Virus record (IMG/VR): IMGVR_UViG_2698536618_000003
Direction: 5' to 3' (one strand)
Source of the DNA: a virus
Lineage: Duplodnaviria > Heunggongvirae > Uroviricota > Caudoviricetes
DNA: 10,947 bases
Part shown: positions 180 to 9,298 of the stretch, in pieces
Position numbering within the stretch: position 1 is the first letter of the stretch
Layout of the letters: every line of letters starts with the position of its first letter
Position numbers and translations under genes: made by a program
Notes under the pieces: generated by a model
What the model was told of the DNA's origin: nothing
Seen by the model: only the letters and a program-made list of their open reading frames with translations
The model's database searches: none

Positions 180-335
180 TTACTCCTCAGGTTCGTAAGC
201 TGTGAAGACAGCGACCTCCGTCTGGCCGGTTCGGACTCGTACCTCGCAGAGGTCTTTCCTCGTTACCAGTGCCGTCACTATGACGGTTAAACAGATGACG
301 ATCAGGGCGATTAACATCGCCTTTTGCTGCTTCAT
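180..335 (-). CDS. hokD: Hok/Gef-family type I toxin (51 aa)
   Basis: Translation MKQQKAMLIALIVICLTVIVTALVTRKDLCEVRVRTGQTEVAVFTAYEPEE has one hydrophobic helix and the conserved C..C tail of Hok/Gef toxins. It is near-identical to my recollection of E. coli HokD/RelF (unverified). ATG at 335-333 with AAGGAG about 10 nt upstream. The track ORF 180-392 is an in-frame upstream extension of this gene. Confidence 0.85.
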   Translation of the reverse strand: MKQQKAMLIALIVICLTVIVTALVTRKDLCEVRVRTGQTEVAVFTAYEPEE

Positions 336-580
336 AGCCTGCTTCTCCTTGCCTTTCGGCACGTAAGAGGCTAACCTACGTTTGTGAAGCATAGATTGGG
401 CCTCAGATTAATGTTAAGCGTCTTGCAGGACGCGTAATGTTAACTGGGGCTTTTCTCTGTCTGCCTTACGGTGGCATGCCCGAGGCAGACAGCCTCAAGC
501 ACCCGCAGCAATTCTACTTAACTCTCGCTTTACCGCAAACCGTTTTTACCCGATATGGGAATTCCCATATCGTAATGAAT

Positions 581-685
581 TCAGTTCCCTAGTCGATCCA
601 TCAAAAACACAACCAGGCAGTAAACGCCCACAACAGCAACAACAGCCAGCGCACCTTCCATTGCCAGTGATATATCATCCGACAT
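581..685 (-). CDS. Small hydrophobic peptide (34 aa), predicted single-pass membrane protein
   Basis: Hand translation of the minus strand gives MSDDISLAMEGALAVVAVVGVYCLVVFLMDRLGN. ATG at 685-683 with GGAGGG 3-4 nt upstream (plus-strand CCCTCC 689-694); stop TGA at 583-581. Below the length cutoff of the ORF track. Confidence 0.4.
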   Translation of the reverse strand: MSDDISLAMEGALAVVAVVGVYCLVVFLMDRLGN

Positions 686-726
686 ATTCCCTCCTTTGGT
701 GTTAATCCCGGCGAACGTTTTTACCC

Positions 727-804
727 TCACCGACAAATAACATATACTAAAAAAGCGATAGCCATAGCAACGCCTGTAATTGCAAATGCTTCAGGCCAGT
801 TCAT
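727..804 (-). CDS. Small hydrophobic peptide (25 aa), translationally coupled to the upstream DUF551 gene
   Basis: Hand translation gives MNWPEAFAITGVAMAIAFLVYVICR. ATG at 804-802 overlaps the TGA stop of the 801-1670 gene (ATGA). GGAGG lies 7 nt upstream (plus-strand 809-813). Confidence 0.4.
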   Translation of the reverse strand: MNWPEAFAITGVAMAIAFLVYVICR

Positions 805-1670
805 TGGCGCACCTCCTGCGGCGGTTCTGGTAGAGGCATCCAGTGTGATGGTATCCACGACGCACCAGGTATTATCCACCCATCATTAGCGTCAGGATGC
901 CCCGGGATGTAAGTCGCCCATTTCATTCGCCAGTCACCTTTCCTGCCAAAATCCCTGGCAACAAGAACGGCTGTTTTGGTATCCGGCATTCGCTCACTAC
1001 AGCTTATCCAACTATCCTGAGTTACCGGATAGTTGCCCGATAGTGCATTCTGCTCCAGTGATGCTTTTACAAACCACGCTGCCTGAACTATAACGCCATG
1101 AATCCAGCGCAAATCAGCATCGCGATCTTTCTTTTTCATCTTTTCGCCACTTAAGGCCTTGCTTATGTGGCTGCGTGCCAGGTCTTCATGTAATTCCTTC
1201 GCCTCCTCAATGGTGAAACCACCAGGCAGAAGAGCCGGAGTTACCGGAGAGCTGGTTGACGCTTCCGGGATTTTCCGAAAATTATTGGTTGACGAATCTT
1301 TATTTTCCCGAAAGTTTCCGGACTGAAACATGGCTTCGCGGCAATCGTTCCAGCCTGTAGCGTATGCAGCCGCTTTGCTGCTGCCTTCAACTGGCGCATC
1401 CTGCCAATACATTTCTTCCGGCACTATCGGCGCTGGAGGGGCGGCAAATAGATATCCGCCAAAGTCAGGAAGCTCTCTAATGGCCTGTACAAATTTTTGT
1501 TTGCCTACGTCAACCCCTAATGGGTAATGAGCTATAATCTTTGCCACCGGCTCTGCTTCCAGCGATGCCAGCGCAATCCGTGCCAGTTCCATTTGTTCAC
1601 CACGGGTAAGCCCGTTTTCAAGCGGATTTTTAATGAACAATTCAATACGTTCTTTGGTAATAGTGGTCAT
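801..1670 (-). CDS. Phage protein with C-terminal DUF551-like domain (289 aa)
   Basis: ATG at 1670 with AAGGAG 8 nt upstream. The Trp-rich C-terminal segment (…GDWRMKWATYIPGHPDANDGWIIPGASWIPSHWMPLPEPP) matches what I recall of the DUF551 domain common in lambdoid prophage nin/ea regions. Confidence 0.8.
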   Translation of the reverse strand: MTTITKERIELFIKNPLENGLTRGEQMELARIALASLEAEPVAKIIAHYPLGVDVGKQKFVQAIRELPDFGGYLFAAPPAPIVPEEMYWQDAPVEGSSKAAAYATGWNDCREAMFQSGNFRENKDSSTNNFRKIPEASTSSPVTPALLPGGFTIEEAKELHEDLARSHISKALSGEKMKKKDRDADLRWIHGVIVQAAWFVKASLEQNALSGNYPVTQDSWISCSERMPDTKTAVLVARDFGRKGDWRMKWATYIPGHPDANDGWIIPGASWIPSHWMPLPEPPQEVRQ

Positions 1671-2815: not shown

Positions 2816-3254
2816 GCTCCTCTCCTTTGATGCGAATGCCAGCGACGCGTAATGCGTGTTCTAGGTCAATCAGGTAAAGCCAACTGCCATTTTCTTTAGG
2901 TATCATGACATGTCGCTCATCTGCATTTATCGGGTGTCCATATCGAAGGTCGTAGCGAGTCGGTAATTGAACTTCCCGCGCTTCCAGTTCAGCAATACGC
3001 TTGCTCCCATCAGAGATAACGCCTTCGTAATACTCACGCTGCTCGTTGAGTTGTGATTTTGCTTCTTCCAGTCCATCCAGCAAATCAGCGATAATATCCG
3101 CTTCCCGATGACGGATGTGACGCTTAAACGCAGCAAGAGCCGCATCACAATCCCGTTCAGCATTTGGGCTGTCCGGGATAGCCTGATACCACGCCAGCGT
3201 CGACTGATAGTTTTGTGCTGCCTCACGAAGCGCCTCATAGTTAACCTCTCTCAT
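2793..3254 (-). CDS. Hypothetical phage protein (153 aa), coiled-coil-rich
   Basis: ATG at 3254 with AGGAGGTG 7 nt upstream; its start overlaps the stop of the upstream gene (ATGA). Its 3' end overlaps the next gene start by 23 nt. Confidence 0.7.
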   Translation of the reverse strand: MREVNYEALREAAQNYQSTLAWYQAIPDSPNAERDCDAALAAFKRHIRHREADIIADLLDGLEEAKSQLNEQREYYEGVISDGSKRIAELEAREVQLPTRYDLRYGHPINADERHVMIPKENGSWLYLIDLEHALRVAGIRIKGEEHGNKTRG

Positions 3255-8759: not shown

Positions 8760-8812
8760 TTTCTGGTGACGTTTGGCGGTACCAGTTTTACTCCGTAACT
8801 GCTCTGCCGCCT
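8760..8812 (+). ncRNA. dicF: DicF small RNA homologue
   Basis: TTTCTGGTGACGTTTGGCGGTACCAGTTTTACTCCGTAACTGCTCTGCCGCCT differs at about 3 of 53 positions from the E. coli K-12 DicF sequence as I remember it. Ends in a GC hairpin (GGCGG…CCGCC) followed by TTTTTT at 8811-8817. Lies upstream of dicB as in Qin. Confidence 0.75.
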
Positions 8813-9106
8813 TTTTTAAAGTGAATTTTGTGATGCGGTGAATGCGGCTCAGCGCACGCGGAACAGTTAAAACAAGCGGTCTTTTACGGGCGTAACGGGA
8901 ATGCTCTGTATCCGGCGTTAATTGTTAACTGGTTAACGTCACCTGGAGGCACCAGGCACTGCATCAACAAAGTTCACTTCGGTGATGAAGGGTAAGAGAA
9001 AATGTTGAATGTAGCTATTGAAAACCAGAACGGGTGGAATTATAGTGCACCTGCACCTCATAAAGCGGGTGCCGGGCGTGGAAACCCGATGATGACTACT
9101 GCGCAT

Positions 9107-9129
9107 AACCGCGCTCATGCGGTTTTTTT
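9107..9129 (+). terminator. Hairpin plus T-run (possible intrinsic terminator or attenuator) upstream of the Rha gene
   Basis: AACCGC-GCTCAT-GCGGTT followed by TTTTTA. It is nested inside a longer imperfect inverted repeat CGCATAA…TTATGCG (9102-9134). Confidence 0.3.
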
Positions 9130-9298
9130 ATGCGTAATGCACAGCCACATTCAGATTATGGTGGGGCGTGCAGGGCAGCCGAAAGGCTGGCCGGTTTCGG
9201 TAGTCACCGGTATTTCCACCCCTGTACGTCTCACCACCCTTATGGTCGTGGAAAGCCTTGGTGGTGAGTTATTTAAACTGACTATCGAGGCTGCCATC

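Follow-up and report, generated by a model that had tools for sequence, protein, structure and literature searches.

Two small genes for predicted single-pass membrane peptides between an EaA/Ea22-like gene and hok in Escherichia coli phages

Introduction

The type I toxins of Escherichia coli (Hok/Gef, Ldr, Ibs, TisB, ShoB, ZorO, and DinQ) are peptides of 19–51 residues that contain one hydrophobic helix and target the membrane, and those that are known form independent modules whose translation is repressed. A different group of small membrane proteins, to which AcrZ, MgrB, MgtS, CydX, and KdpF belong, consists of single-pass proteins of about 25–50 residues with short conserved polar ends, which bind a larger membrane protein and are often unannotated. 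EaA/Ea22-like phage proteins, in turn, influence the lysis–lysogeny decision. All three groups bear on the locus discussed here, which lies in a stretch of 10,947 nucleotides from a virus of the class Caudoviricetes (IMG/VR record IMGVR_UViG_2698536618_000003; hereafter the window, meaning this whole stretch), and which consists of two short open reading frames (ORFs), ORF1 and ORF2, placed between a mosaic EaA/Ea22-like gene with a DUF551 domain and a hok/sok locus. An original prediction, made from the sequence, had described the two as translationally coupled micro-genes for hydrophobic peptides and had suggested that they might be type I toxins or membrane-active phage factors.

Our analysis leaves little doubt that both ORFs are real coding genes. 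We further consider it fairly probable that they are separately initiated genes for single-pass inner-membrane microproteins, that lambdoid and other E. coli phages carry them as part of their accessory gene set, and that they act by binding a partner; this grading applies to the statement as a whole, the specific mode of action being far less certain.

Two short frames under purifying selection

All coordinates are positions in the whole window, and ORF1, ORF2, the upstream gene, and hok are all encoded on the minus strand. The two genes and their Shine-Dalgarno (SD) sequences are as follows:

812..817, minus strand: SD of ORF1, AGGAGG, inside the DUF551 coding sequence, 7 nt 5' of the ATG (read from the sequence)
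727..804, minus strand: ORF1, a 25-residue single-helix micro-gene (ATG 804..802, TGA 729..727)
690..695, minus strand: SD of ORF2, AGGAGG, 4 nt 5' of the ATG (read from the sequence)
581..685, minus strand: ORF2, a 34-residue single-helix micro-gene (ATG 685..683, TGA 583..581)

The original prediction had placed two minus-strand ORFs of 25 and 34 residues downstream of the DUF551 gene, each behind a strong SD and each encoding one transmembrane helix, and on these points it was accurate: the coordinates are confirmed, and AGGAGG stands at 817..812 and 695..690. The products, MNWPEAFAITGVAMAIAFLVYVICR for ORF1 (25 residues) and MSDDISLAMEGALAVVAVVGVYCLVVFLMDRLGN for ORF2 (34 residues), each contain one hydrophobic segment of transmembrane length, with a best 17-residue mean Kyte-Doolittle hydropathy of 2.48 and 2.94, respectively (3.22 for Hok), so that ORF2 ranks first and ORF1 second in hydrophobicity among the 57 ATG-initiated ORFs of 22–60 residues found in the six frames of the window.

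Both frames are under purifying selection across their relatives. For ORF1, a tree-based count over 59 unique sequences, restricted to codons not fixed by the search pattern, yielded 170 events, namely 90 synonymous, 77 nonsynonymous, and 3 stop changes; the synonymous share is therefore 53%, against 27% expected (binomial p 7.8e-13) and 17% in the two other frames. The pairwise ratio of nonsynonymous to synonymous differences (pN/pS) is 0.43, compared with 0.76 and 1.79 in the other two frames, and the stop codon switches between TAA and TGA at a constant length of 27 codons. ORF1 is also intact in about 112 of 114 loci of the sample anchored on ORF2, which is unbiased with respect to ORF1, and these intact copies include a 25-residue variant, MSRPDAFAGVAIAIAFLVYVICRWG, downstream of a further upstream gene.

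The ORF2 sample was obtained by a scan of viral contigs anchored on the SD region, and because this anchor is non-coding the resulting integrity count is unbiased. The 34-codon frame is intact in 122 of 125 copies, three ending two codons early and none being frameshifted; seven of the intact copies start with GTG in place of ATG. Neighbour-joining and Fitch reconstruction over 35 unique sequences counted 26 synonymous events and 19 nonsynonymous ones, where a synonymous share of 29% would be expected (p 7e-5), and the changes at codon positions 1, 2, and 3 number 12, 4, and 29, a bias that is absent from the two other frames. Conservation of the intact frame in relatives, proposed with the original prediction as a check to be made by tblastn and carried out here by tblastn and scans, was found for both ORFs.

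An alternative frame within ORF2 (601-678, minus strand) holds a further hydrophobic ORF of 25 residues, MIYHWQWKVRWLLLLLWAFTAWLCF. Neither alternative frame shows a coding signature in the substitution counts, so that this ORF probably arises as a mere by-product of the codons that make up ORF2.

The ORF1 family

The window copy of ORF1 belongs to a family that we define in this analysis as the WPEAF...CRWG microprotein, which has 27 residues and the consensus MTWPEAFTTVGIAMAVALVVYSICRWG, ending in CRWG. The window peptide aligns to the family without gaps and has its N-terminal motif, M-x-W-P-[ED]-A-F, and after it a hydrophobic helix in which Gly11 and Tyr21 are present; the copy is truncated, codon 26 having changed from TGG to TGA with loss of the final two residues (WG), and at 25 residues it falls short of the 27-codon C-R-W-G ending that marks the family. 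Pattern hits in viral contigs, together with the earlier loci, provided 130 ORF1 copies, about 123 of them with an intact 27-codon frame, and the 25-residue TGA form accounts for 3 of these 130 and for 10 of the 90 motif-matching ORF1 copies that lie beside ORF2. In the window, the TGA at 727-729 is followed in frame by GGG TAA, and reading of the UGA by tRNA-Trp would give back the ...CRWG terminus; that read-through restores the ancestral end in this way is speculation.

A tblastn search detected relatives of ORF1 in 99 phage records, among them 933W, Stx2 II, Stx2a_WGPS2, the virulent Vequintavirinae phage Av-05, and Klebsiella prophages, which have a shorter form; the version in 933W and Stx2 II, MTWPEAFANVGTVMAVVLVVYSICRWR, stands immediately ahead of sokW/hokW. 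A common variant is present in 1631 of 5426 complete E. coli genomes (about 30%), at 3105 places. A scan of species-representative genomes, with a pattern that demanded E or D at residue 5 and C-R-W and that excluded Klebsiella-type variants, found ORF1 only in Escherichia, Shigella, and two tiny contigs that are probably contaminants, and protein-database matches extend it to E. albertii and Salmonella. Among 5.8 billion protein clusters, searched with N-terminally extended or concatenated peptide queries, the family appears only sporadically, with artificial N- or C-terminal extensions and the label 'hypothetical protein'.

The ORF1 family is systematically missing from annotation: at every annotated locus inspected, in RefSeq and in GenBank phage records, ORF1 has no coding sequence (CDS) feature of its own, and the upstream gene is the sole feature there. 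The statement that the two frames fall below the length threshold of standard gene callers thus holds for ORF1, and it fails for ORF2, which PGAP calls as a 105-nt CDS. In the Shigella phages POCJ13 and 75/02 Stx, GenBank/RefSeq annotate opposite-strand hypothetical ORFs on the corresponding DNA (loci L003 and L004, about 1541-1625). Neither peptide belongs to a Pfam, PHROGs, NCBIfam, or PADLOC family, the only matches being sub-threshold ones to transmembrane segments, and neither is found in the supplement text of 'The Cryptic Bacterial Microproteome'. Within a check that covered the K-12 prophages Rac and CPS-53 (which has the DUF551 gene yfdS) and lambda ea22, with Qin, DLP12, and e14 outside it, neither ORF was found. 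ORF1 is a new, well-supported addition to the small membrane proteins already known as a class from phages and bacteria.

ORF2 is an annotated gene with a ribosome-occupied orthologue

ORF2 is already annotated, and translation evidence for it has been published. It corresponds to RefSeq WP_001278454.1 on DNA that is 100% identical to the window, and PGAP calls it 'hypothetical protein' in every E. coli RefSeq locus inspected (WP_001278454.1, WP_001278450.1, and variants). Copies were gathered from E. coli genomes and IMG/VR contigs: a 321-bp region is present in 765 of 5426 complete E. coli genomes and the ORF2 segment in 674 of them, at 1469 places, and the identical 34-residue protein (P0011) occurs on 997 contigs. 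Its relatives in protein databases are all from E. coli; a tblastn search against 50,697 phage records returned nothing, possibly owing to low-complexity masking, and blastn against the same records left ORF2 uncovered. In a divergent branch, orf2b, whose core is VLVLKCALAIAAVMAIYCLAVVLMDRLSD, the gene lies at the same place ahead of hok and ends about 42 nt short of the 5' end of the hok mRNA; its start is probably an internal GTG behind GGGAGG or AGGAGG.

The ORF2 orthologue in E. coli O157:H7 Sakai is XECs145, which holds the V16I variant and so differs in one residue. XECs145 was listed as a novel gene of 54 residues, called from an upstream alternative start and predicted to encode an inner-membrane protein (Hucker et al. 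2017, PMC5597208). In the ribosome profiling (RIBOseq) data of that study, growth in LB gave 79.1 reads per kilobase per million (RPKM) for RNA and a ribosome RPKM of 346.1, with a ribosomal coverage value (RCV) of 4.35 and a coverage of 0.99, and growth in BHI gave an RNA RPKM of 121.3, a ribosome RPKM of 150.1, and an RCV of 1.14; under cold and osmotic stress, translation was nearly off (PMC5597208). The same screen considered only ORFs of at least 30 residues (PMC5597208), and because of this minimum ORF1 could not appear in it.

Translation signals and upstream genes

The gene that precedes ORF1 in the window is the following:

801..1670, minus strand: DUF551-bearing mosaic EaA/Ea22-like gene, 289 residues (ORF list; Pfam PF04448)

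Its DUF551 domain is C-terminal (PF04448, E 6.7e-19, residues 220-285; Pfam), and its N-terminus, MTTITKERIELF..., is of the type common to most genes that precede ORF1 copies, which share the EaA/Ea22-like beginning MTTITKERLL.... Its final codons hold the SD of ORF1, and its stop codon, TGA at 803..801, is overlapped by the ORF1 start as ATGA at 804..801, exactly as had been predicted. The ATGA overlap is found in 139 of 139 ORF1 copies, the Klebsiella form having TAATG; the main search pattern fixed ATGA, so that this count is partly true by construction, and a scan in which the second codon was left free also returned ATGA only.

The genes preceding ORF1 fall into at least three C-terminal classes, namely those ending in DUF551 (...PEPPQEV[NR]Q), those ending in ...LKRNGLISAEDVLR, and those ending in a zinc-ribbon/coiled-coil (...NIEQEVNR). 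The sequences in front of the ATGA vary with the class (GCGCCAATGA, GAATCAATGA, TTTTACGATGA), and a GGAGG-like element lies 6–8 nt 5' of the ORF1 ATG in all of them. Because every class has such an SD and no slippery site is common to them, ORF1 is an independent, translationally coupled cistron. The idea that ORF1 might be a programmed-frameshift extension of the DUF551 protein was considered and rejected, no slippery heptamer being shared and both SD and ATG being present in every class.

The coupling claimed in the original prediction accordingly stands for ORF1 and the DUF551 gene, and not, as far as overlap is concerned, for ORF2 and ORF1: ORF2 starts 41 nt past the ORF1 stop and in a different frame. 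A looser, structural connection is hinted at by RNA folding. The region 830..540 has a minimum-free-energy z-score of -2.76 relative to shuffled sequences, and in the predicted fold the ORF2 SD (696-690) pairs with the CUUUUUU of ORF1 codons 17-19 (755-749); in one lineage, a compensatory TA-to-CG change has occurred at 750/695, which on the ORF1 side yields a synonymous Leu codon. The modelled structure hints that translation of ORF1 may unmask ORF2.

Proposed roles of the two peptides

In the reading we prefer, ORF1 would close an EaA/Ea22-like gene cassette as its final cistron, expressed here with the early (nin-region) operon, and because of the ATGA overlap and the position of its SD in the last codons of the preceding gene it would be made whenever ribosomes finish that gene. 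ORF2 would initiate at its own strong SD, which ORF1 codons 17-19 would mask and ORF1 translation would open; it would be translated in lysogens and behave as a lysogen-expressed moron. Insertion into the membrane is predicted for both peptides, and the positive-inside rule would give ORF1 an N-out, C-in topology. Both would act as small helices by binding to some larger membrane protein of the host or the phage, rather than as self-sufficient killer toxins; by analogy with known small membrane proteins, the conserved polar ends (WPEAF and Y..CRWG in ORF1; LMDRLGN in ORF2) suggest a specific membrane partner. ORF1, ORF2, and hok/sok would then be three mosaic modules that are often, if not always, inherited together.

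Several points weigh against this reading. The translation evidence covers an ORF2 orthologue that differs by one residue, and the XECs145 reads may map to more than one place, because the locus is multi-copy in each O157 genome. Loss of ORF1 is evidently tolerated, since the window copy is truncated by a nonsense change and the copies in POCJ13 and 75/02 Stx are broken, both by a TAG at codon 3 and the latter also by a frameshift. The structural coupling of ORF2 to ORF1 has a single covariation event behind it, and in A17D, the most frequent variant among viral copies, one terminal base pair of the SD-masking helix is lost. The mode of action of both peptides is argued by analogy only. Finally, the closeness of ORF2 to the hok promoter region, at 42-76 nt, could signal a functional tie rather than mere co-inheritance.

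Linkage with hok and the possibility of a shared module

The features that lie between ORF1 and the end of hok, apart from ORF2 itself, are listed here:

716..726, strand not assigned: 11-nt direct repeat, copy 2, directly after the ORF1 stop
551..572, strand not assigned: 22-bp perfect palindrome, CGATATGGGAATTCCCATATCG, which separates the ORF2 stop from the hok promoter
541..551, strand not assigned: 11-nt direct repeat, copy 1, GGGTAAAAACG on the minus strand, one edge of a 175-bp ORF2 segment
511..538, minus strand: putative hok promoter, TTGCGG (538..533)-16 nt-TAGAAT (516..511), read from the sequence
180..504, minus strand: hok/sok locus (leader and sok target 504..330; mok-hok frame 392..180; hok 335..180)

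The hok mRNA leader is recognized by Rfam (RF01794, 117.5 bits, E 7e-27), the hok mRNA starts at 504, and on identical DNA PGAP names the gene hokD. The promoter, which is putative, stands 6 nt ahead of where the Rfam hok-leader match begins and is kept in 933W and in orf2b loci. In the RNA fold the palindrome gives a hairpin of 9 bp, which is not followed by a U-run; divergent copies of the palindrome are imperfect, and its role could be that of an insulating hairpin or of a site bound by protein. Just 3' of hok, at 90-171 on the minus strand, there is a weak isrK-like match (27 bits, E 0.014, under the gathering score), which covers a GC-rich hairpin and T-run resembling a hok terminator.

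That both ORFs lie just upstream of hok had been noted in the original prediction, and the association recurs in other phages. It raises the question of whether the hok module functionally includes ORF2, and perhaps ORF1 too, either because the peptide modulates the membrane insertion or toxicity of Hok or because expression of the element tunes the hok promoter. ORF2 is followed by hok within 420 nt in 105 of 114 copies of the ORF2-anchored sample (92%); both of its divergent branches stop 42-76 nt ahead of the 5' end of the hok mRNA; and it is translated in lysogens, where hok/sok is active as well. Among 76 phage loci anchored on hok, the 520 nt upstream contain both ORFs in 18, ORF1 only in 21, and ORF2 only in 11, so that one or both are present in 50 of the 76 (ORF2 in 29, ORF1 in 39). 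The remaining 26 loci have neither, however, and these carry hok of the same subtype; ORF2 occurs without hok in one locus (L006); and when 130 copies are viewed from ORF1, the next element is hok in 24 and ORF2 in 21, with neither within 450 nt downstream in 85. In the published functional work on hokW-sokW, toxin–antitoxin behaviour required no ORF upstream (PMC8621323), and in mosaic phages shared recombination joints alone can yield such linkage.

The structure of the junctions bears on the same question. In 933W, ORF1 is directly followed by AAAACGGTTTGCGG, the hok promoter, and the ORF2 segment is absent. The 175-bp segment that holds ORF2 and the palindrome is flanked in the window by the 11-nt direct repeats at 541-551 and 716-726, and since 933W has the same junction without it, the segment looks like an insertion/deletion cassette; as a MITE-like insertion it would have the direct repeats, and no terminal inverted repeats were seen. 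In three hok loci (L255, L258, and L259), only the last ORF2 or orf2b codons (e.g. ...MDHLSD*) or the palindrome remain before the hok promoter. These remnants imply recombination breakpoints inside ORF2 and a 3' end of ORF2 that travels with hok, and their persistence beside hok after the rest has been lost would fit a role in the hok module. Taken together, the linkage counts indicate that ORF1, ORF2, and hok/sok are separable mosaic modules with strong but incomplete co-travel. We therefore hold membership of a functional hok module to be unlikely, while treating a functional tie between ORF2 and hok as a live alternative.

A more elaborate version, in which ORF1, ORF2, and Hok form a three-peptide membrane module, with ORF1 as an obligatory partner of the EaA/Ea22-like protein and lysogen-made ORF2 as an immunity protein or co-factor of Hok, strikes us as a long shot; if true, it would add a protein layer to a control of Hok that is thought to be RNA-only.

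Two kinds of joined sequence were also encountered. A natural chimera, P0096, whose annotation is Hok family toxin, combines the N-terminal half of ORF1 with the C-terminal half of Hok, and rare 74-residue ORF1-ORF2 fusions (P0008, P0009, and P0001) arise from one-base homopolymer changes, requiring an extra G in a G-run and being confined to a few metagenome contigs. Such chimeras and fusions may be assembly errors or recent deletions.

The toxin reading

The suggestion that one or both peptides are type I toxins, which would depolarise the membrane and be silenced, as Hok is, by an unrecognised antisense RNA, is not supported. The small size, the hydrophobicity, and the single helix are compatible with it, as are the adjoining hok gene and the existence of a chimera that joins ORF1 to Hok. 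Moreover, two weak sigma-70-like sites on the plus strand (9 of 12 matches), at 661-688 and 720-748, are antisense to the start of ORF2 and the 3' end of ORF1, which leaves some room for an undiscovered antisense RNA, and the region as a whole contains four such sites against 1.0 expected. These antisense hexamers overlap variable codons, however: among 125 ORF2 copies, 25 have A8V and 7 begin with GTG. The plus strand has no terminator-like site, and Rfam returns no RNA in 581-804 at E<=1. No Hok/Gef, Ldr, Ibs, TisB, or other toxin family is matched in Pfam-A or NCBIfam at E<=10, beyond sub-threshold hits such as PTR2, and PADLOC gave nothing relevant.

Expression argues in the same direction. 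As every one of the ORF1 copies examined is coupled through ATGA to an ordinary gene, a toxin in this position would be expressed constitutively with its operon. The ORF2 orthologue, for its part, undergoes heavy translation in growing O157:H7 Sakai (RCV 4.35), the opposite of what is expected for a silenced toxin. The conserved polar ends of ORF1 (WPEAF, CRWG) in turn suggest specific contacts, not bulk damage to the membrane. With a toxin-family match and a known antitoxin RNA both lacking and translation coupled or strong, we judge a type I toxin quite improbable, and a hydrophobic micro-ORF next to a type I toxin is not by itself evidence of a toxin. The other half of the suggestion, a membrane-active phage factor, is a plausible candidate role for the peptides.

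Weakest of all is the notion that the ORFs are non-functional, as conserved DNA or RNA (a recombination joint, or a terminator or insulator before hok) or as the halves of a broken 74-residue two-helix gene: ORF1 does lie exactly at a module boundary behind differing upstream genes, the ORF2 segment does have direct-repeat edges and end in a palindrome, the region folds better than its shuffles, fused proteins (P0008, P0009) exist, and some copies have decayed, but a DNA or RNA element would not show a synonymous bias that is confined to the ORF frames, nor does it fit an ORF1 stop that alternates between TAA and TGA at a fixed 27 codons, an ORF1 that occurs without ORF2 in most contexts, or a ribosome-occupied ORF2 orthologue, and the codon-level counts have already largely refuted this highly improbable reading. 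The broken 74-residue gene was also rejected in its own right, with 0 fusions among the ORF1 copies beside ORF2 and an independent distribution of ORF1.

Other features of the window

At a distance from the locus, the plus strand contains a cluster of Rfam matches at 8761-9241, which comprises DicF RNA (8761-8812, 70 bits), isrK (9053-9129, 64 bits), and C4 antisense RNA (9154-9241, 79 bits), together with a sub-threshold c4-a1b1 target. We liken this cluster to the immunity/antirepressor small-RNA region of Qin- and P1-type elements.

Comparison with known systems

The closest described entity is ORF2 itself, in the form of XECs145, WP_001278450.1, and WP_001278454.1. XECs145 is the V16I variant and differs from our description in its start, which was set upstream (54 residues) instead of at the SD-led ATG, and neither a function nor a connection to ORF1 or hok was described for it (PMC5597208). 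Settling the start of ORF2 and adding ORF1 would improve prophage annotation, and the ORF1 family is found in medically important Shiga toxin (Stx) phages such as 933W, where it stands directly ahead of hokW-sokW.

The genes before ORF1 are mosaic EaA/Ea22-like genes, many with the Ea22-type C-terminal DUF551, and thus connect the locus to lambda Ea22 and the exo-xis/EaA region (PMC10834534). Lambda itself has no ORF1 after ea22, the micro-gene belonging to other members of this gene class, and the literature found on lambda Ea22 and the EaA region does not describe it. For this accessory region, with its EaA/Ea22-like genes and hok, which is poorly understood, ORF1 and ORF2 provide two defined candidates.

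With the type I toxins, ORF1 and ORF2 share their size and the single helix, and they differ from them in lacking both a family match and a recognisable antitoxin RNA and in their translation, coupled for ORF1 and strong for the ORF2 orthologue. Their likeness to AcrZ, MgrB, MgtS, CydX, and KdpF is one of overall design: these proteins are chromosomal and have known partners, whereas ORF1 and ORF2 are phage-borne and dissimilar to them in sequence. If either peptide were found to interact with Hok or with Ea22-like proteins, this would create a testable link between small membrane proteins and the maintenance or induction of prophages.

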